Below, piece by piece: positions 24,826 through 35,448 of a DNA stretch of 64,000 nt; positions within the stretch are counted from its first letter, which is position 1, and each line of letters starts with the position of its first letter. The position numbers and the translations under genes are program-made. Source of the stretch: a virus (taxonomy: Duplodnaviria > Caudoviricetes); IMG/VR virus record IMGVR_UViG_2936514734_000001, positions 64,001-128,000 of that record, one strand, 5' to 3'. The notes under the pieces were generated by a model. It saw nothing but the letters and a program-made list of their open reading frames with translations, searched no databases and was not told the origin of the DNA.

Positions 24826-26007
24826 TTATAGGAACAGACCTACAATCGTCGCTGATAATACAGACGCCATTGTTGCTACTAATAGCATTTTCATACCAAA
24901 CTTAGCAACGCCCGCACCTTGTTCTTGAGAAAAACTTTGTACTGTTCCTTGAATGATTCCAATAGAAGAGAAGTTAGCAAAACTAATTAAGAATGTTGAA
25001 ACGATACCCACAGTTTTAGCAGATAATGCTCCCATAATTGGTCCAAAACCAAGCATAGCTACAAACTCATTCGCTACAATCTTTGTAGACATAACACTTC
25101 CTGCTTTAACCGCTTCATCCCAAGGCACACCCATGATCCATGCAACTGGAGATAAGATATAACCTAGGATAGTTTCAATCTTCATACCTACTAAACCTGT
25201 AACTGCCCAGTTAACCATTGCTAGTAATCCAACATAAGCGATAAGCATAGCAGCTACAATAGCGGCTACTTTTAATCCGTCAATTGCACCATTACCAACC
25301 GCTTCAAAGAATGTCTTTTCTTTCACCATATCTTTGATGTTAATATCAGCGTTGTCTTCTTTAACTGGTGCTACGATAGTAGAAAGGATTAATCCACTTA
25401 GAACATTCAATGGTAATGCAATTAAAACATATTCAGGCGGTACCATTTGCATGTAAGAGGCTACAATAGAAGCGCTTACACTAGTCATTGAAGCTGTAGT
25501 TGCTACGAATAGCTGATTACGGTTAAACGAAGGAATGTGGTTTTTAATCGCTAATAAAGCACCTGTATCTCCAAATACAGAAGATGCAATTGTACTAAAT
25601 GAAAGAACTCGTGGTAGTCCTGTAATCTTTGCAATTAATCCACCAAGATATTTAATAAGTAGCGGTAAAATTCTGATATAGTTTAAGATACTTAGAATAG
25701 TTGAAGTAAACACAATCAGTAATAATACGCTAATAACGAAAACAGATTTACCTTCAGGAACTAATCCACCAACTACAAAGTTGATACCTTCTGTCCCGAA
25801 AGTCATTAGCTTAGAGAACCCGTTTGCAATCGCCGTTAGGATTTTACCTCCAATGCTTGTGTGTAGCATAAATGCTGTAATAACCAACTGAAGTACGAAT
25901 AAAATACCTACCGCTCGATAATTGATATTCTTCTTATCATTTGATAGTAAGAACGCAACTCCAAACGTAATAACGATCCCTAAAATGCCTACTAAAATAC
26001 CTGTCAT
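24826..26007 (-). CDS. nupC: NupC/CNT-family nucleoside transporter
   Basis: EGINFV, SMTSVS, KIVANEFVAM, SFANFSSIG. Confidence 0.9.
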   Translation of the reverse strand: MTGILVGILGIVITFGVAFLLSNDKKNINYRAVGILFVLQLVITAFMLHTSIGGKILTAIANGFSKLMTFGTEGINFVVGGLVPEGKSVFVISVLLLIVFTSTILSILNYIRILPLLIKYLGGLIAKITGLPRVLSFSTIASSVFGDTGALLAIKNHIPSFNRNQLFVATTASMTSVSASIVASYMQMVPPEYVLIALPLNVLSGLILSTIVAPVKEDNADINIKDMVKEKTFFEAVGNGAIDGLKVAAIVAAMLIAYVGLLAMVNWAVTGLVGMKIETILGYILSPVAWIMGVPWDEAVKAGSVMSTKIVANEFVAMLGFGPIMGALSAKTVGIVSTFLISFANFSSIGIIQGTVQSFSQEQGAGVAKFGMKMLLVATMASVLSATIVGLFL

Positions 26008-26090
26008 TTTGAATCTCCTTCTTCTTATTTATTTGTCGGAAATTAAAATAAGCAGTTAACTTATCAAAGTCAACTGCCATTCTCAAATAT

Positions 26091-26603
26091 TTAACTGCAG
26101 ATTCTACTAAACTCTGAATCAACAATTTGTAGCTTGTCACATGCAATAAAGTCATGTGGATATATAACTCCATCTTTGTCAGGGAATAGTTCGATACCTA
26201 CTCGTCTGAATACTTCATCCACCAATTCGGTACAAATATAACTGTTCTTCCCATTTAGGTGTTTTAATAATTTTGTGTTTGGAAATTTTGTTTTCAGAAA
26301 CAGATTAATCAGCATAAGCCAATCATATCTATTTCCGGTCTTGTTAAACGCACAAGCATTAGAAGTAATGTTTACTTGTTGATTTGCTGTTAAAGGTTTT
26401 TTACTTCTTAACACAACATGCTCAAACTCACCAAACGTATAAGGATCTTTAACAAGTGTTGCTTTCGTGTTCCAATCAATTTCTAAAACATATCCACCGC
26501 CAACATAAAGGGCGACATGCGTCCATTTAGAGCCGACTGTCTTTTGAATTGCTTTAGAAATGATACTGTTACCACTAACAACAAAGATATCTCCAATTTT
26601 CAT
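26091..26603 (-). CDS. YiiX/YebB-like permuted NlpC/P60 (papain-like) hydrolase
   Basis: GD…WTHVALY…RYD…YICTEL. Confidence 0.8.
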   Translation of the reverse strand: MKIGDIFVVSGNSIISKAIQKTVGSKWTHVALYVGGGYVLEIDWNTKATLVKDPYTFGEFEHVVLRSKKPLTANQQVNITSNACAFNKTGNRYDWLMLINLFLKTKFPNTKLLKHLNGKNSYICTELVDEVFRRVGIELFPDKDGVIYPHDFIACDKLQIVDSEFSRICS

Positions 26604-26628
26604 AGAGGCATTACCACCTTTCCAAGTC

Positions 26629-26735
26629 GAAAAAAAGGGAGGCCTCTAATTAGAGACCCCCAAGAAGAGAGAGAAAGAAGTAAGAAGGAGAAATAACATA
26701 ACAAACACATAGGAGGATACATATCGTATGATGAA
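26629..26735 (-). ncRNA. Candidate ~105-nt pyrimidine-rich sRNA with anti-SD motifs
   Basis: TATAAT at 26742-47 (-); UCCUCCU, UUCUCCUU, (CU)n; GGGGGTCTCTA/TAGAGGCCTCC-T7 terminator. Confidence 0.5.
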
Positions 26736-26818
26736 CGCTACATTATATATATAATCTATTGATGTCGTATTAACAATCTTCTCGTCTACTATCTCTCGAC
26801 TGGATAACCAACCAATAC

Positions 26819-27118
26819 TTAAAGTGGAATGTCTTCGTATCCGGAAACATTTAACCAATCAGGTATTTCAGGTTCTTGCACAAATAATGGCTGTACAGGA
26901 GCTACATTAACCGGCATATGATCTATATCACCATAATCAACTCTGCAATAAAAATGACCATCATCACACGGCTTGTCTAACTTTAGATGAACAGGATAGA
27001 AATACTCACCATTAGCAATAAGATGTATTGTAGCGGTATCCCCTACATTAATTCCTGCTATTCCTATATCCCTAACAATATAAACTCTGTCTCCCTGCTT
27101 AAACTCTTTTTTAAGCAT
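26819..27118 (-). CDS. Hypothetical SH3-like protein
   Basis: FKQGDRV motif; overlaps the DHH gene. Confidence 0.6.
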   Translation of the reverse strand: MLKKEFKQGDRVYIVRDIGIAGINVGDTATIHLIANGEYFYPVHLKLDKPCDDGHFYCRVDYGDIDHMPVNVAPVQPLFVQEPEIPDWLNVSGYEDIPL

Positions 27119-28154
27119 GAGATGATTGAGGCAACAAACCTAATGCATTCTCTGTTAGGAATGTCATTTTTTCAGAGTCAAATTCGAAACCGGCAGCCTT
27201 GGGATGTCCTCCACCGCCTGCAATTGATTTAGCAATATTACCTACATGTACGTCTTCATGAATAGTTCGAAGACTTGCTTTACCAGAGTTCATATCAAGA
27301 ATAGCAACAAAATTCAGGTCAGGATTCAGAGTATTTAATGTATTACCTAATGTTGAATGATATTGATCAGCGAACACTACACCTACGTCATAACGCTTAC
27401 CATCGACATACCATTCATGTTTAGCCATTTTCTTAGAGCGGCCTTCAATGTATTTTTCTTCTCGTTTGTTTTCAATGTTGACCAATAATCGTTCTGTTTC
27501 ATTTAAAGAGAATAGATCAGGCAGTCTAACATTAGTGAAGATTTTAACGAATTTCGCTAACTGCATCTCAATAAACTGAGACGGTGTAAGAATATAAAGA
27601 ACAGAATTTAATTCTTTAGCAAGGTCATTACCTGTACGGTACCAGTCCCATGTGTCATAAGAACGAACCTGCTCTACAAAAGTGTTTACAGCGTATGATT
27701 CATACACATGAGTTAGGAAACAGTCTTTCTCTTTTAGGTATAGATAATATAATTCTGTAGCAGAAGTTAAGCGGTCATTAATTTTACTTGTAATAAAAGC
27801 CCACTCAGGATACTTTTCACTAATCCATTTAGCTGTGTCGTGATGATCTAGTAACACAATAGTAAGACCTGCAGTAAATAAATTGTTCAAGCGCTCTACA
27901 ATTTCTTCAGATGTAGGAGCAATATCTGTAATTAAAATAGCGGAAGTTACATATTTAGGTACGTTTTTGTCTTCTTCAAATGATGACATAACTTCATCAA
28001 GTTCTTCCTCAAACCGATCATAGCCGCAATGAATATGCTTAGCTATTTTTAATGTCGATAATTTAGAAATGACTTGGGGAGAATATCCGTCCAAGTCATT
28101 GTGTGAAAGATGATATACTGTTTTACCTTTTAATGATTGTAAGTTACCAAACAT
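27111..28154 (-). CDS. DHH/DHHA1 phosphoesterase (nanoRNase NrnB-like)
   Basis: HNDLDG, ITD, LDHH, YDTW, SLR, GGGGHPKAAG. Confidence 0.9.
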   Translation of the reverse strand: MFGNLQSLKGKTVYHLSHNDLDGYSPQVISKLSTLKIAKHIHCGYDRFEEELDEVMSSFEEDKNVPKYVTSAILITDIAPTSEEIVERLNNLFTAGLTIVLLDHHDTAKWISEKYPEWAFITSKINDRLTSATELYYLYLKEKDCFLTHVYESYAVNTFVEQVRSYDTWDWYRTGNDLAKELNSVLYILTPSQFIEMQLAKFVKIFTNVRLPDLFSLNETERLLVNIENKREEKYIEGRSKKMAKHEWYVDGKRYDVGVVFADQYHSTLGNTLNTLNPDLNFVAILDMNSGKASLRTIHEDVHVGNIAKSIAGGGGHPKAAGFEFDSEKMTFLTENALGLLPQSSHA

Positions 28155-28175
28155 CTTATTTCCCCCTTGTAGCGA

Positions 28176-28937
28176 TTATGCCGCTACTGTTTTATTTTTA
28201 CGTAATGCATGTACAACAAATGTTGCAGCAAACGTTAAGATTAAGATTCCAAAGAATAACCAGTGAGGAACATGAATTTCATGCATGTGGTATGAACCAT
28301 GAAATAATTTAGAAGCAAGGTTTACCATGCTATGAACAGTTCCTAGTAACATTTTTAAACCAATGATTACGATTAAAACGAAAGCTGTATGCTCCATTTC
28401 TGGTACTCTTTCAATAAGTCTAGTAAATAATTTTGCAACAAAACGCATCATGACAATACCAAGAATACCGCCAAGTGCTAATACCCAAAACTTATCACTA
28501 AGAGCCAATGCAGCAGTAATACTATCTACTGAGAAAGCTAAATCCATTAATTCAATTGAAATAACAACAGACCAGAAATGACTTACTCGAATGTTCATTT
28601 TACCTAGTAATTTATGAAGCCATGTTTTCGTATACTTATCTACTACTCCGCTTTCATCTGAATCTTCTTCTTTCTTAACAAAGTGCTCAATACCCATCTT
28701 TAATAAGTAAACCGCACCAATAACTTTAATAATCCAGAACTTAACGATAACTGTTCCAATCAAGATAAAGAATGCACGAAACGCAATTGCTCCTACCATA
28801 CCGTAATAAAGAACCTTGTCACGCTTAGCAGGATCTTTTACTTTGCTTGCCATCATTGATAGTACAAGGGCGTTATCTGCACTTAGTAAGCCCTCCATTA
28901 CAATCAATACAAAAACGATATATAAATTTTCTAACAC
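28176..28937 (-). CDS. terC: TerC-family membrane protein
   Basis: EGLLSADNALVL, DLAFSVDS. Confidence 0.9.
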   Translation of the reverse strand: MLENLYIVFVLIVMEGLLSADNALVLSMMASKVKDPAKRDKVLYYGMVGAIAFRAFFILIGTVIVKFWIIKVIGAVYLLKMGIEHFVKKEEDSDESGVVDKYTKTWLHKLLGKMNIRVSHFWSVVISIELMDLAFSVDSITAALALSDKFWVLALGGILGIVMMRFVAKLFTRLIERVPEMEHTAFVLIVIIGLKMLLGTVHSMVNLASKLFHGSYHMHEIHVPHWLFFGILILTFAATFVVHALRKNKTVAA

Positions 28938-28971
28938 GTAGTTTCCTCTTCCCTATAGATATTTTATTCTC

Positions 28972-29579
28972 TTAGCGGGGATCATCTGTATGTGCTAAGC
29001 ATCTTTTACATTCGAAAGACTTAGACGGGGTAATGAACGGAATAGAAATCCATCCCCCGCCAATAAACTTCCAATCATGACCTTGCACTGAACAAATTAG
29101 TAACCGCCTCCAAAGACCAATAAACAAAAAGTGACCAAAGATAATTATGCGGATTGCTATTCCAACTAAGTACGTCAGAATGATTATGCCTACCCCTTCC
29201 AGCATATCTATCAAGTAGGTTTTTCTAGACACTCTTACACCCCATTATTAGCGGTTTTTATTCATGATTGCTTTCTTTACGTCTTCACCAATATAATCCC
29301 AAACTATGCAACCTGCACAGAAACCAAAGATGAATAGAATTAAGCTCATTTACGTTTACCTCCATTAGGACAAATTGTTATTGCAATGAAAAATCCGACA
29401 ATAGCAAAAGCAATATGCTGACTAAAAGCCATAGCACCCGCTCCGAATTTTGTATATGGACGAACAACAAGTTCTATCCAAATCACACCTTTACATATAA
29501 AGAACATGATGACCTCTACTACTAGCAGGGTCATCATCAGTTTTACGTTATACCAAAAGTTCTTGATTTTTTGCTTCAT
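28972..29579 (-). other. Small membrane ORFs (28972-29232, ~29229-29348, 29346-29579)
   Basis: Hydrophobic short ORFs in tight operonic spacing. Confidence 0.55.
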
Positions 29580-29583
29580 AGGA

Positions 29584-30186
29584 TTAACCTACTTCTAAGC
29601 CGTACTCAACGATAAATGCTTCCATTCCTTTGTTGTAGCCTTTACCTTCAGCACTGAATCTCCAGTCGTTTTCTTTCAAGTAAAGACGGAATAAAAGAAC
29701 CGCTGTTTCAGTAGAGAAATCTTCTTCTAAGTCATATTGGTACATTGGCTCATTTGTTTCATCATTAACTAGAACAACTTTTGCATTGCGAACGTCTCCG
29801 AATTTCACGCCATCGTTTGTGCTGGCAATGAAGTGCATCTCGGTGATATGTGAAGGGACTTTTGTGAAATCAACTGAAATGATTTCATCAGCGCCACCTT
29901 TACCTCCTGTAGTTTCGTCTCCGCTATGTGCAATTGCTCCACTTGGATGAATAGCTAAGTTGTTACCATGATCGTCATAACCGAATGCTACAACAAAGTC
30001 ACGATCTTCACGGCATTTACCATTTGATTGTAGTGCTACAGCTACGATATCTAAATCGTGCTTACCACCTGTATCGAACTTGTTTTCATCCCAATAAATC
30101 TCTGCACGAAGTTTTGCAAGTCCTGGTTGCTCTTTTCGTAAGTTCACTTTTTTACCACGTTGAACTTTTTGTAATGTCACTGCCAT
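29584..30186 (-). CDS. terD: TerD-family protein
   Basis: DLD, HSGDETTG…DE, YDLEED, LY…WRF. Confidence 0.85.
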   Translation of the reverse strand: MAVTLQKVQRGKKVNLRKEQPGLAKLRAEIYWDENKFDTGGKHDLDIVAVALQSNGKCREDRDFVVAFGYDDHGNNLAIHPSGAIAHSGDETTGGKGGADEIISVDFTKVPSHITEMHFIASTNDGVKFGDVRNAKVVLVNDETNEPMYQYDLEEDFSTETAVLLFRLYLKENDWRFSAEGKGYNKGMEAFIVEYGLEVG

Positions 30187-30244
30187 AATTAATTCCTCCG
30201 ATTGTTTATAAGTTTTGTATTTTAATAAATGATTAAATAATTAA

Positions 30245-30898
30245 TTAACGAAGAATTGCATTTTCAATTGAATCAATAGAACCAGATTTAACACCTTGTC
30301 CTAGAGCTTTAAATTTCCATTCACTGTTATGCTTGTACAACTTACCTAGAACAACTCCACGCATTCCCTTGAATTCATCTAATTCGTAGCGGACTAACTC
30401 CTCGTTGGTATCTGAATTCAATAAGCGTACATAAGAACCACTTAAGCGGCTATCACTAAAGTCATTAGCACCTGTATAAATATTTGCAATTACATAAAGC
30501 TCTTTAACTGCTACATGAAGTTCTTCTAGTTTTACATAGATTTCTTCATTATCTTCTTTACCGAATTGGTTATTACCGCTGCGGTCATCACCTGCATGGT
30601 AAACACCTTGTGCATGTCGTTTAGCAAAATAAACACGATCCAACTTACGACCATCTGCATCTACCATAACAACAGCAGAATCTACATCTACTGGACTAGT
30701 AAGAGTTTGTGAGCTGCTAGAAGAACGTCGTCCTCCACCAAAGATAGCTGAAATAATACTTACTTTTTCAGGCTTTTCTTCTTTCTTTTCTACTAGGCCA
30801 CCCCAACGCAAACCTAAAGTTACATGACGTAAACCTGCATTTTCTTTTGTTAATTCAACTGATTCTCCTGCTTTAATCTTGTGCAAACTAATTGCCAT
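30245..30898 (-). CDS. terD: TerD/TerZ-family protein
   Basis: GLRW, DVDS, HAGDDRSG…DNE, LY…WKFKALG. Confidence 0.85.
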   Translation of the reverse strand: MAISLHKIKAGESVELTKENAGLRHVTLGLRWGGLVEKKEEKPEKVSIISAIFGGGRRSSSSSQTLTSPVDVDSAVVMVDADGRKLDRVYFAKRHAQGVYHAGDDRSGNNQFGKEDNEEIYVKLEELHVAVKELYVIANIYTGANDFSDSRLSGSYVRLLNSDTNEELVRYELDEFKGMRGVVLGKLYKHNSEWKFKALGQGVKSGSIDSIENAILR

Positions 30899-31577: not shown

Positions 31578-34555
31578 TTATGCTGCAACTTTTTTACTAG
31601 AAGAAGATAAGATATCGCGAATTTCCGCTAGAGATTGGTCACGAACTAATTCACCATTTACGAATACATCTTCTAGTTGATCAATATCTGCGTAGTGTGC
31701 ATCATATTCCGCTTGGTTTAATCCATCACGGAATTGTAGTTCACCATCTACTTCTACTACAGCAACAAGACCTCTTAAGCTACGTTTAGTACCATCATCT
31801 GTTTTAGGATCTTTGAATAGGAAACGCTCTTCGCCATTCACTACAGCATATGTAGCTTTCATAGCAAATCCAAACGTATCGCGTGTATTGTACTGATAAC
31901 TAAATGCTCTTGATTTTTATAAGTCACTAAGAAGTTTGTCCGGTAAGATATCCTTACTAAACAATTCTGTTGACCAATTTGTTCTAACTCGGAATGTTTT
32001 GTACTCTTCTAAAATACGAGACTCTAATTTGTACGAATCAATTAGTGGAAGTTTTACAGTTTGCAATACTTCTACAACTGACTTTGAACTACTACGTAAA
32101 GCGCGAATTCTACTACCTAGATTGGTTGTAATTCCTATTTTGTAATAAGAACCGATTTTCATGTAATAAACAAGACTATCTCTTTGAGCAATTTCAGGTT
32201 CTCTCTCGAACAACTTATCATTATATCCTCCACACAGAATGCCTGTATCTATAAGTTCCTCTACTTTACACTCAAAACAACCTTGCCCAGATAAATGTTT
32301 CTGAGCGGTTTTCTTAAATGGCCCATGAGTAGGACAGATTATATCGATTACAGTTTTTCTATTTATATAAATAGATGAATTCGTTTCTGGATAGGTATAA
32401 AAGTCATTGTGTTTGATTTTAGATTTCTCTATAAAATCTTCATATGGTTTTGTTTTAGAACTATTCTTTCGTTCCATTCCACAAAACTTACAACCACAAT
32501 TACTTACAAGTATTGAACGCGGAACGTAATCACTCGGTCCGTGTTTTGGACAGGTCAGAGTAACAGTACCCTTTGTTAAACCTTCATAGTTTGTAAGGTC
32601 TATAGTGAACTTGTCTCCGTATTTTTCTTTAACTTGGTCCATGTAATCTTCTGGAGAAACCGGTGGTCTTTCCACATTCTTTTTCGGTCTATAAGCTGCC
32701 TTAAAGATAGCTGTACAAACCGGACAAGGAATCTTACCATTCAAGTGCTTGTCAGGAGTTTGCTCAAAAGGACCATGTTCATCACATATGATAATAGATT
32801 TTGTTTTTGCATTTACATATTTAAAGTTAGAGTAATCAAATTTATCCCCATATTTATCTTTCGCTTTTTGTATAAAACGTTCTTTATTAATTTCCTTGTT
32901 ATTGGTCTTCTTCATTTTTCTTCCTCCGATACGATTTATGTATATAACATAACCATACCCGTGACAATAATCAAGCCGGACTATATCATCATCCTGTATT
33001 TTTCATACAGGAGCCTCCCTTTTCGATTTAAGGGGATCTCACCCACTTGTTCTAATAAACAAGCCCTACTCCTATAGCGGACTTACACCGCACCAATTGG
33101 ATAGTCTCTGAACCTTCTCCCTCGCCTTATACGTTAGGGGCTTGGATGCGTTTAGATGATTGCTCAAGTATTTTGCGTTGTTACCATACCAAAGGCGTTA
33201 CCCTTTGCCATATAATTGTTTCCAATTATACTTGGTAGCAAAACCCTATATGAACGTCCCCGCAATTAAGGAGAGTGGTCATTTACCTATTACTAGGCAA
33301 CGGGGCCATAAGTTAACCCGATTCCAAATACAATGTTTGTACTAGCGAAGCCTTTAGCTTTTAACTTCTCACAAATTTGAGTGATACGTTCTAGATTCAT
33401 AGAGTCACCATAGATAGCGCCGATATGGGTATCAAGAACTTTATATCCTTGCTTAGAAACCGTACCACCAAAGATATCCCATAGGGCTTCAATTAAGCCT
33501 TTGCGCTCTAATTCCGTTTTCCCATCTGGTGTACCGCAAACGATATCTACAGGATCACCACTATCAGGACGGATAACAACTCGTCCATCACGATTCAAGA
33601 TTGTTTCTTTCAATGCAGGTAAATACTCGCCTACAACCTTCCAGAAATCCCACGTATCAGATACTACAGAGAAGAATCCAGTAGGATATACATTAGTCAT
33701 AAGGTGTTTGAACAATTCAAATTCATCCGTTTGACCATATGAGCACATTACTGAATGTTCAGTCGCGCTGATAGAAGTACCCACTAATTCTTTTTCTACG
33801 TTTGCATTGTAGAATTCTTCTAGGTGGAAGATTGCAGGAATAGTATCTGTACCAACAAATGATAATAGATGTCCTGCACCAGAAGCTTTTGAAGCGTCTA
33901 ATGAAGCCATACCGCGCATTGAGAAATCGTGTCCTTGATATGGAACACCTTCAGTAGTACCTACTGTTTCTAAAGCATACTTATCTAATAGCTTACGGTA
34001 CGTATGAGCAATCGTAGCACTTGTCATTGGCAACCAAACTTCATTAGAGATAAGAGTTTCTAAGTAGTTTGTAATCCAAAAAGTTGCAGCCATATCAGGT
34101 CTTGTATTCACTACTGTTAATACAGGGACTTTAATTGGTGCTAGCGTACCTTCTTTTAAGGCTTTTAATTTCACCGGAAGATACCCTAAATCGTGTAGTT
34201 CCTCAATATGATTGATACGTGGATTTTTTACACCTAAAGTGTTAGTAACAAAACGTACATACTCTTCAACAACTTCCGCTTTCGGACGGCTAAAGAAATG
34301 AGTGTTGAAGTGATCAATTAAGTATTTCTTCACAAAAGCTTGAATACCAAATACAACTACTTCATTAGCGGCAGGGTAATACTTGTTGCTACGTGGAATG
34401 AATGTTGAATAAATAGTTTCAGTACCTTCTGGATATTGGTCATAGTGTCCTAGTTTATAGTAGTCACATAGTAAAGGTGATGGATTAGATGTTTTGTTAG
34501 TCTTTTTAATATAAGCAATTAATTCTTCTTGAGTCATAGTATCGAAATGAGACAT
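31578..34555 (-). CDS. NAMPT/NadV-like protein (probable Namat), join(33316..34555, 31578..31906), ~522 aa after splicing
   Basis: DYYKLGH, HDFSMRG, EHS, VSDTWD, RPDSG, GAIYGD; splicing restores FGIG-SFSYQYNTRDTFGFAMKAT. Confidence 0.9.
31907..33315 (-). mobile_element. Group I intron (1409 nt) carrying a homing endonuclease gene
   Basis: Exon ends GGGU pairing with IGS GCCC; P (33257-67), R GTTCAGAGACTAT (33101-13), S GATATAGTCC (32978-87); terminal G at 31907. Confidence 0.9.
31917..32915 (-). CDS. Intron-encoded endonuclease: three CxxHG…CxxC (DUF723-like) repeats plus C-terminal GIY-YIG/T5orf172-like domain
   Basis: ICDEHG, TCPKHG, ICPTHG repeats; VYYMKIG-YYKIGIT…R…LE. Confidence 0.8.
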   Translation of the reverse strand: MKKTNNKEINKERFIQKAKDKYGDKFDYSNFKYVNAKTKSIIICDEHGPFEQTPDKHLNGKIPCPVCTAIFKAAYRPKKNVERPPVSPEDYMDQVKEKYGDKFTIDLTNYEGLTKGTVTLTCPKHGPSDYVPRSILVSNCGCKFCGMERKNSSKTKPYEDFIEKSKIKHNDFYTYPETNSSIYINRKTVIDIICPTHGPFKKTAQKHLSGQGCFECKVEELIDTGILCGGYNDKLFEREPEIAQRDSLVYYMKIGSYYKIGITTNLGSRIRALRSSSKSVVEVLQTVKLPLIDSYKLESRILEEYKTFRVRTNWSTELFSKDILPDKLLSDL

Positions 34556-34593: not shown

Positions 34594-35448
34594 TTAAGCT
34601 ACTTCAGTTACTTCATTTTCTTCTTTTTGCATCCATCCAAGACTTGAGATAATTTCTACTTTCTCATGTTTGGACTCATTAATAATTGAATCTGTTGTAA
34701 ATACTTTTGTGATTAAATCAGAACCAGGGATTTTTCCTTTAAAGATGCTGTCTTCACAATGAGTTACAGCAAGGAAAATATCTCCCGCTCCTAGTTCTTT
34801 GAGCTTTTCTGCACTCGCCATGAACGTTCCACCATAGCTGCTAAGATCATCAAGGATAACTACTTTGCGACCGGGTTCGATGTTGCCAACAACTTGCAAA
34901 CTATCAATCTTACCTGTCTCAGTATTACGCTTCTTAAATCCTACTAGCTCATTTGGAATTCCTAGCTTGCCGTAACGTTTTTGAGCGCCGGCATCCGGAT
35001 AAAAGATATAGTCTTTCTCTTTATCAAACCCAATCTTTTCTGAAACAAGCTCAAATAATTTACGGCCAGTTTCTAAAGCGTAGCAATTGTCCAATAAGGC
35101 AAGAGTTACATCTGAATGGGATTCGACTACATATACGCTGTGAAATTTAAGTGAATTGATAAAATCACATACATATTTCAGCGTAAATACATCAGTACCC
35201 ACTCGTCTGTCCATACGGCTATATGGCATATAAGAAATGTATAAAACAGTTTCCTTATCTGTTGTTTCATCTAAGAATCGTTTAACAAGCATAAGCTGGA
35301 TAAGATCAGCATCAGATTCATATTTAAATTCAACTTCATTGCTATCTCCAATCAAATTCCAAGAATCTAATAATTGTTGCCCATTTAGGTGTGTCTCGCC
35401 ATTTGGAAACTTCTTAAATTCAATTAACTCATGATTTAACTTAATCAT
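34594..35448 (-). CDS. Ribose-phosphate pyrophosphokinase-like protein (probable Adps)
   Basis: FPNGE, YMPYSRMDR, PDAGAQKRY, LDDLSSYGGTF, AVTH. Confidence 0.85.
   Translation of the reverse strand: MIKLNHELIEFKKFPNGETHLNGQQLLDSWNLIGDSNEVEFKYESDADLIQLMLVKRFLDETTDKETVLYISYMPYSRMDRRVGTDVFTLKYVCDFINSLKFHSVYVVESHSDVTLALLDNCYALETGRKLFELVSEKIGFDKEKDYIFYPDAGAQKRYGKLGIPNELVGFKKRNTETGKIDSLQVVGNIEPGRKVVILDDLSSYGGTFMASAEKLKELGAGDIFLAVTHCEDSIFKGKIPGSDLITKVFTTDSIINESKHEKVEIISSLGWMQKEENEVTEVA

Follow-up and report, generated by a model that had tools for sequence, protein, structure and literature searches.

A predicted mobile group I intron encoding a putative homing endonuclease interrupts namat in a phage NARP1 operon

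The window, i.e., the whole 64,000-nucleotide stretch that was analysed (positions 64,001 to 128,000 of IMG/VR record IMGVR_UViG_2936514734_000001), belongs to a virus record of 239,374 bases in which 18 tRNAs were called. The helicase encoded in this genome shares 60-64% identity with those of the Bacillus phages Edson, WH1, and KLEB27-3, suggesting a Bacillus-type host, and the sequencing runs holding half of the window's stretch were rhizosphere metagenomes. An operon containing namat and an intron lie on the minus strand of the window, with the following features:

34594..35448, minus strand: adps, first gene of the operon, encoding a PRPS-like ADPR-PP synthetase (Adps) of 284 aa; 49% identical to an SPbetaL1 gene (E 3e-66)
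33316..34555, minus strand: namat exon 1, 413 codons plus the first base of a Ser codon; Pfam NAMPT_N and NAPRTase; PDB 9w5w/9w5x, E 1e-173
31907..33315, minus strand: group I intron, 1409 nt, with its terminal G at 31907; from splice test, Rfam, and covariation
31917..32915, minus strand: 332-aa putative homing endonuclease with three DUF723-type zinc repeats and, C-terminally, a T5orf172/MUG113 domain, all above the Pfam cut-off
31578..31906, minus strand: namat exon 2, selectivity-clamp helix and loop and C-terminal strands; from the splice join, with residue roles from PMC12774641
31503..31531, minus strand: terminator-like hairpin at the operon end; a consensus match alone, with 3 such hairpins found in the region and 2.8 expected by chance

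The upstream adps product matched canonical PRPS proteins weakly (E 1e-13 or worse). Since an Adps homologue stands upstream of namat, we read the locus as a NARP1 operon. Edson and WH1 (L238 and L239), the nearest cultured relatives, lack namat; they therefore offer no empty allele, and the NARP1 operon is itself accessory in this phage group. An accessory cluster downstream (window 24826-30898) holds two TerD genes, TerC, and a DHH phosphoesterase, together with what we take, by appearance, to be a permuted papain-like protein and a NupC-type nucleoside transporter.

The first open reading frame of namat (34555..33293) contains NAMPT_N and NAPRTase domains and ends early, after 420 aa; the C-terminal part of the NAPRTase domain, missing from this ORF, follows the nuclease ORF. 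PDB matches of the exon-1 product were ranked SPbetaL1 Namat (E 1e-173), Bas63-type Namat (8e-134), and human NAMPT (1e-53). The Namat signature, G-S-aromatic-x-aromatic-x-aromatic-x-T-R-D, is the selectivity clamp of the enzyme and begins at G390-S391 (PMC12774641); the spliced product carries it as GSFSYQYNTRD. No PF01467 gene (the cytidylyltransferase family, Nmnat-like) was found in the whole genome. Because of the PDB ranking, the signature restored by splicing, the upstream Adps, and the lack of an Nmnat-like gene, the host gene is assigned to Namat rather than Nampt, and the anti-defence NAD gene that a sequence-only reading of this DNA had seen here holds. The catalytic core residues F189, R192, D215, His, R306, and D308 correspond to F211, R214, D237, H267, R329, and D331, and 20 of the 21 mapped ligand and catalytic positions are identical or allowed in comparison with SPbetaL1 and Bas63 Namat, A362 being Ser here. 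The R40 position is occupied by K58 followed by Y59, a K-then-Y replacement described as a variant in PMC12774641. The enzyme is predicted to synthesise NAD+ from ADPR-PP and may rescue the phage from NAD-depleting defence.

Joining 33316 to 31906 gave a frame of 522 aa without an internal stop. When 13 junction shifts were compared, the one predicted by the sequence-only reading (33316 and omega-G 31907) alone gave a U before the 5' splice site, a terminal G, and GIG-SFSY. The first base of the S391 codon is the last before the intron, which separates Gly390 from Ser391. The NAD contacts of Namat include S391, F392, Y396, T398, R399, and D400 (PMC12774641), and all six are encoded by exon 2. 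Since none of them lies in exon 1, the structure implies that an active enzyme would require splicing, and the splicing dependence proposed for the activity in that reading follows. The insertion itself is real DNA, common to close relatives, because its splice sites were bridged by contigs from three studies at 91-100% identity; these contigs also rule out an assembly chimera. An intein was ruled out by stop codons and the RNA core, and a group II intron by the lack of a reverse transcriptase and the presence of a group I core.

The Rfam model Intron_gpI (RF00028) matched 33325..32959 over its full length with 41.8 bits (E 7.9e-9). The gathering score is 50, and a search at that threshold gave no match; large insertions lower the score. 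Along with the P, R, and S elements claimed previously, Q could also be located (P 33267-33258, Q 33153-33141, R 33114-33102, and S 32990-32978). The elements of the ribozyme are as follows:

33303..33319, minus strand: P1 helix, in which U33316.G33306 forms the U.G pair at the 5' splice site; pairing in 100% of cells across 11 introns
32978..33300, minus strand: ribozyme core; from RNAalifold, the hand-set alignment structure, and the located P, Q, R, and S
33300-33283, minus strand: P2, core helix
33274-33268/33020-33014, minus strand: P3, core helix
within 32978..33300, minus strand: P4-P6, core helices
33108-33102/32983-32978, minus strand: P7 with a bulged A and the G-C guanosine site, the G-C being invariant (11/11)
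33012-32992, minus strand: P8, core helix
32969..32975, minus strand: 5' strand of a P9.0-type long-range helix, pairing with 31915-31909 just before the terminal G

Covariation was assessed on 11 homologous cores. RNAalifold alone recovered P1, P2, P3, P4, P6, and P8, with double-sided changes at 25 of 44 pairs. The hand-set structure, which includes P7, is paired in 94% of cells, and 21 of its 37 pairs have changed on both sides, whereas slid controls for the same cores gave 38-50% pairing. Folding of the isolated core was no better than that of shuffled sequences (z -1.3). The U-G at the 5' splice site was present in all 11 aligned introns, and positions 33309-33307 can pair as P10 with the three bases that open exon 2, where L160 has a compensatory change. 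Subgroup IA is marked by additional hairpins between P7 and P3. Because ~80 nt (33101-33021) stand between these helices here, the results indicate an IA-type intron. The best DNA match of the core was the SPbeta bnrdF intron (71% over 140 nt). Taken together, junction, core, and covariation bear out the group I intron first noticed in this NAMPT/Namat-like gene.

The P9.0-type helix spans ~1 kb and loops out the entire nuclease gene. Across 13 introns, matched strands paired at a mean of -7.9 kcal/mol vs. -2.9 +/- 0.66 for permuted ones, and 0 of 100000 permutations were as good. The nuclease ORF occupies the P9 region; as described in the sequence-only reading and confirmed by the ORF at 32915..31917, it begins downstream of P7, and its stop codon ends 10 nt short of the terminal G. 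In 11 of 15 introns, the nuclease stop lies 0-3 nt from the terminal G (in four, the G of the stop is the terminal G itself) or the ORF runs into exon 2. No second group I intron or second nuclease copy was found elsewhere in the genome. At window 33013-33243, loose contig ends in runs X1, X2, and X6 contain P- and S-like elements from a different but related group I intron; further introns are thus present in relatives or in co-occurring phages.

The T5orf172/MUG113 domain of the nuclease is classed in the GIY-YIG superfamily. Its Y250, Y251, K259, G261, R269, and E298, as well as the Cys/His ligands, are invariant in 30 homologues, K259 and G261 forming part of a conserved Lys-Ile-Gly. Foldseek returned no significant match for the nuclease domain; in a VIA fold comparison the best matches were GIY-YIG proteins but weak, the top four including Slx1 and HIGLE (Z 4.6-5.0, rmsd ~3, 73-82 aligned), with I-TevI at Z 3.8. 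No promoter for the nuclease passed a consensus scan of the window, and the L086 and L088 introns have a perfect -35 box at the equivalent place. A single-sequence nuclease query found nothing in scans of viral contigs, whereas alignment-based scans succeeded. All 12 nuclease homologues that were looked up stand beside a NAMPT-family gene, as do the full-length strong matches in the scanned loci, except two with contig ends close by; weaker or distant DUF723 proteins do not. Within INPHARED, only Lak-A1 has a close clade member (E 2e-55, the next best being 1e-37). The layouts in this clade comprise 16 loci with an intron-borne nuclease, 12 with a free-standing one, and 4 in which it splits the gene without an intron core. 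The intron-borne nucleases do not form a single clade (AU p 0.018), on a tree that is poorly resolved and has long branches.

A survey of homologues, suggested by the sequence-only reading, gave different answers depending on the query. No insertion was present at the intron site in the 80 closest viral homologues, but a nuclease-led search showed the same site to be occupied in 14 further distinct loci (L086, L087, L088, L094, L098, L100, L160, L163, L165, L171, L172, L176, L219, and L224), i.e., 15 with the window. L224 is the Lak-A1 megaphage, and L219 is from an assembly with a protein labelled Clostridium perfringens. No published report of this intron was found, but with at least 15 loci occupied it is not a one-off, which corrects the sequence-only reading. 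Thirteen introns with both ends share the junction, while L163 and L172 share it at the 3' end alone. GGG-T stands at the junction in every intron with a 5' end, and the GGG glycine codon occurs in just 4 of 69 empty alleles. In L175:302-1657, an independent group I intron that has a P1 of its own and a nuclease of the same clade stands 7 nt upstream of the site used in the window. A DNA pattern made of the exact P element and the exon end gave four unrelated matches, and a relaxed P-element pattern found only the two IMG/VR introns already known. For a nuclease-free intron at the site, a pattern scan covering short P9 regions alone gave ten chance matches.

To place the intron on the host-gene tree, 10 changes are required for 11 rows, at least 7 of these changes being forced by strong branches. 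The empty site is defined by Lak-A2 and Lak-C1, which are intronless and have exons 97% identical to those of Lak-A1. Lak-A1 differs from Lak-A2 at 25 positions between -1 and +89 of the junction and at 10 in the 1265 nt upstream, with no mismatch in the stretch from +90 to +325. This is likely a co-conversion tract with an exon-2 bias, as expected if the donor was distant. These observations bear on the idea that the intron splices while its nuclease is inactive or aimed elsewhere, the element being inherited vertically here. Relatives at 91-95% identity also carry the intron, the L152 nuclease copy is a remnant, and the L098 and L100 copies are shortened, as might be expected in that case. 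However, the window's nuclease keeps every invariant catalytic and zinc residue, the whole clade is tightly linked to namat/nampt, the Lak tract points to homing, and one loose contig end from run X2 can be read as an intronless allele whose serine codon is AGC. We consider this idea very unlikely.

The same distribution weighs on a regulatory role, in which splicing would respond to GTP, NAD+, or ADPR and so time or gate the anti-defence enzyme. Such a role is implied by the test of NAD/ADPR effects that the sequence-only reading proposed. The intron does stand in an anti-defence gene, and group I splicing requires a guanosine cofactor. Yet near-identical Lak phages differ in the intron, the site is empty in all 80 closest homologues, the intron is scattered on the host tree, and the peripheral domains are freely variable, without any visible conserved insertion resembling an aptamer. 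Nothing relevant was found in the literature on effects of NAD on group I splicing. Regulated splicing thus finds no support and is, in our estimate, very unlikely; what is seen is in keeping with selfish homing aimed at a conserved active-site motif.

In-frame TAG codons occur in two nuclease genes, 8 in L171:3501-4469 and 6 in L224:3501-4514, with none in namat exon 1. TAG recoding is known in Lak phages, with which these codons are consistent, and they may possibly confine nuclease expression to late infection. The Lak paper lists NAMPT in its table as two ORFs (433-aa and 108-aa for Lak-A1) and discusses introns in tRNAs alone.

In the four split loci without an intron core (L091, L152, L169, and L222), the nuclease gene separates two ORFs belonging to one enzyme. 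The first ORF ends in Y-Q-G-G plus two residues, within a Gly-rich C-terminal tail that is new and shared, and the second begins with M-A-x-T-R-D. G-S-x-x-Y-Q thus stays on the first piece and only Y396 is lost. The break is placed where, according to PMC12774641, the enzyme crosses over from domain B back to domain A and single clamp mutants cost 1.3-1.7-fold; it lies 15-20 nt from the site of the intron-borne nuclease. Such loci, along with an in-frame ATG in exon 2 at 31862, raise the question of whether the window's namat could do without splicing, either as a pseudogene or as two separately translated pieces. However, ATG 31862 comes after T-R-D and the exon-1 product lacks S391/F392, so that six contacts would be missing, whereas true split loci restart just before T-R-D. 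Moreover, the core is intact and covarying. Absence of splicing is therefore extremely unlikely.

The 12 free-standing loci are L093, L096, L097, L099, L101, L102, L161, L164, L177, L220, L235, and L236. Among 11 alleles linked to a free-standing nuclease, 5 have indels in the motif and the other 6 differ from the consensus at 3-9 of 15 residues. Unlinked alleles keep the exact motif spacing in 79 of 80, with a mean of 2.9 differences among distinct ones; as these 80 were picked by similarity to the window gene, the comparison is biased and the indels carry its weight. Two intact genes beside a free-standing nuclease (L161:1390-1460 and L235:4047-5591) have Gly-rich in-frame insertions at the split point (+5 and +15 residues) and possibly are re-fused split genes. 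Other elements were seen in these loci as well. The first split-namat piece in L091:676-2937 holds an intein of ~305 aa directly after the catalytic R-P-D motif, and several kinds of mobile element are attracted to namat. NAMPT-family genes in L065:2804-4001, L072:3050-4001, and L101:124-1095 are split near residue 270-280, just past the catalytic His and at a site different from the window's, by inserts of 0.9-1.2 kb in which no group I motifs were found. An HNH gene lies between adps and namat in L094:911-1510, and an Acb2/Tad1-like hairpin gene and a Macro-domain gene adjoin namat loci (L091:4345-4623 and L235:5660-6196).

We therefore favour, as highly probable, an account in which a mobile group I intron homed into namat of a phage NARP1 operon. 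By group I chemistry, adps-namat would be transcribed and guanosine-dependent splicing at U33316 and G31907 would rejoin Gly390 to Ser391. The spliced message would give full Namat, making NAD+ from ADPR-PP and nicotinamide, and unspliced RNA would give a dead product of 420 aa. During co-infection, the nuclease would recognise sequence spanning the junction and cut intronless namat at the stretch coding for G-S-F-x-Y-Q-x-x-T-R-D, probably on the exon-2 side, judging from the co-conversion tract, the split position, and the indels alone. Repair would copy the intron with flanking exon, and homing would spread the intron. Self-protection could be achieved in three ways: interruption of the site by the intron, divergence or indels in the site beside a free nuclease, or an insertion that splits namat into two ORFs. 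Whether a single nuclease lineage specialised on namat has switched repeatedly among intron-borne, free-standing, and working two-chain split forms, with L161 and L235 as re-fused alleles, we regard as evenly balanced. If so, these loci would provide a natural series for the way in which mobile introns and genes-in-pieces originate at one and the same site, and the NAD counter-defence of a co-infecting rival could be damaged by the nuclease as well.

Each of the three arrangements (mobile intron, free-standing endonuclease, and gene-in-pieces) has been described before, but usually in separate genes and nuclease families. Here a single clade displays all of them within one 25-nt stretch, so the proposed route from a pre-adapted free endonuclease to a mobile intron can be tested on a single site. 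The results also show that homing can target an anti-defence gene as it does td or nrd, such a gene being sufficiently conserved and common. In addition, these Namat genes are mis-annotated as fragments, as with the two Lak-A1 ORFs, so that surveys of anti-defence may undercount NARP1.

In gene order and sequence, the operon resembles NARP1 of SPbetaL1 and Bas63 (Osterman et al., bioRxiv 10.1101/2024.02.11.579819; PMC12774641), but the window's namat is interrupted at the first residue pair of the signature; the discovery preprint (10.1101/2024.02.11.579819) says nothing of introns, inteins, or gene splitting. In the open literature, no description of an intron in namat, nampt, or nadV was found. 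The split loci, although not the window itself, are like nrdA-a/mobE/nrdA-b of Aeh1 (PMC3045599); they differ in enzyme and nuclease family and in that the same clade is also intron-borne 15-20 nt away, and an enzyme assembled from their pieces is putative. The pre-adaptation model (PMC2988022) fits the coexistence of free-standing and intron-borne nucleases at one conserved site, as well as L175, although the precursor it predicts, a nuclease-free intron at the site, is missing from these data. The nuclease shares its domain architecture with T5orf172 homing endonucleases that have CapR/DUF723 repeats, such as those of ICP1 (PMC10448857, PMC8096241). However, the ICP1 terL nuclease adjoins an intron whereas the window's lies inside one, and, unlike ICP1-type T5orf172 genes, its clade is tied to one host gene family. 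Finally, the mobile group I introns of phages (T4 td/I-TevI and nrdD/I-TevII, SPbeta bnrdF, and Bastillevirinae IA2/IA3; PMC11878797, PMC2988022) are alike in having an IA-type core extended between P7 and P3, a peripheral loop that houses the nuclease ORF, and insertion in a conserved active-site codon. The window's intron differs from them in its host gene, the anti-defence Namat, and in a nuclease with N-terminal zinc repeats and a C-terminal T5orf172 domain. The class of intron is thus known; namat as its host and the three-form system appear to be new.
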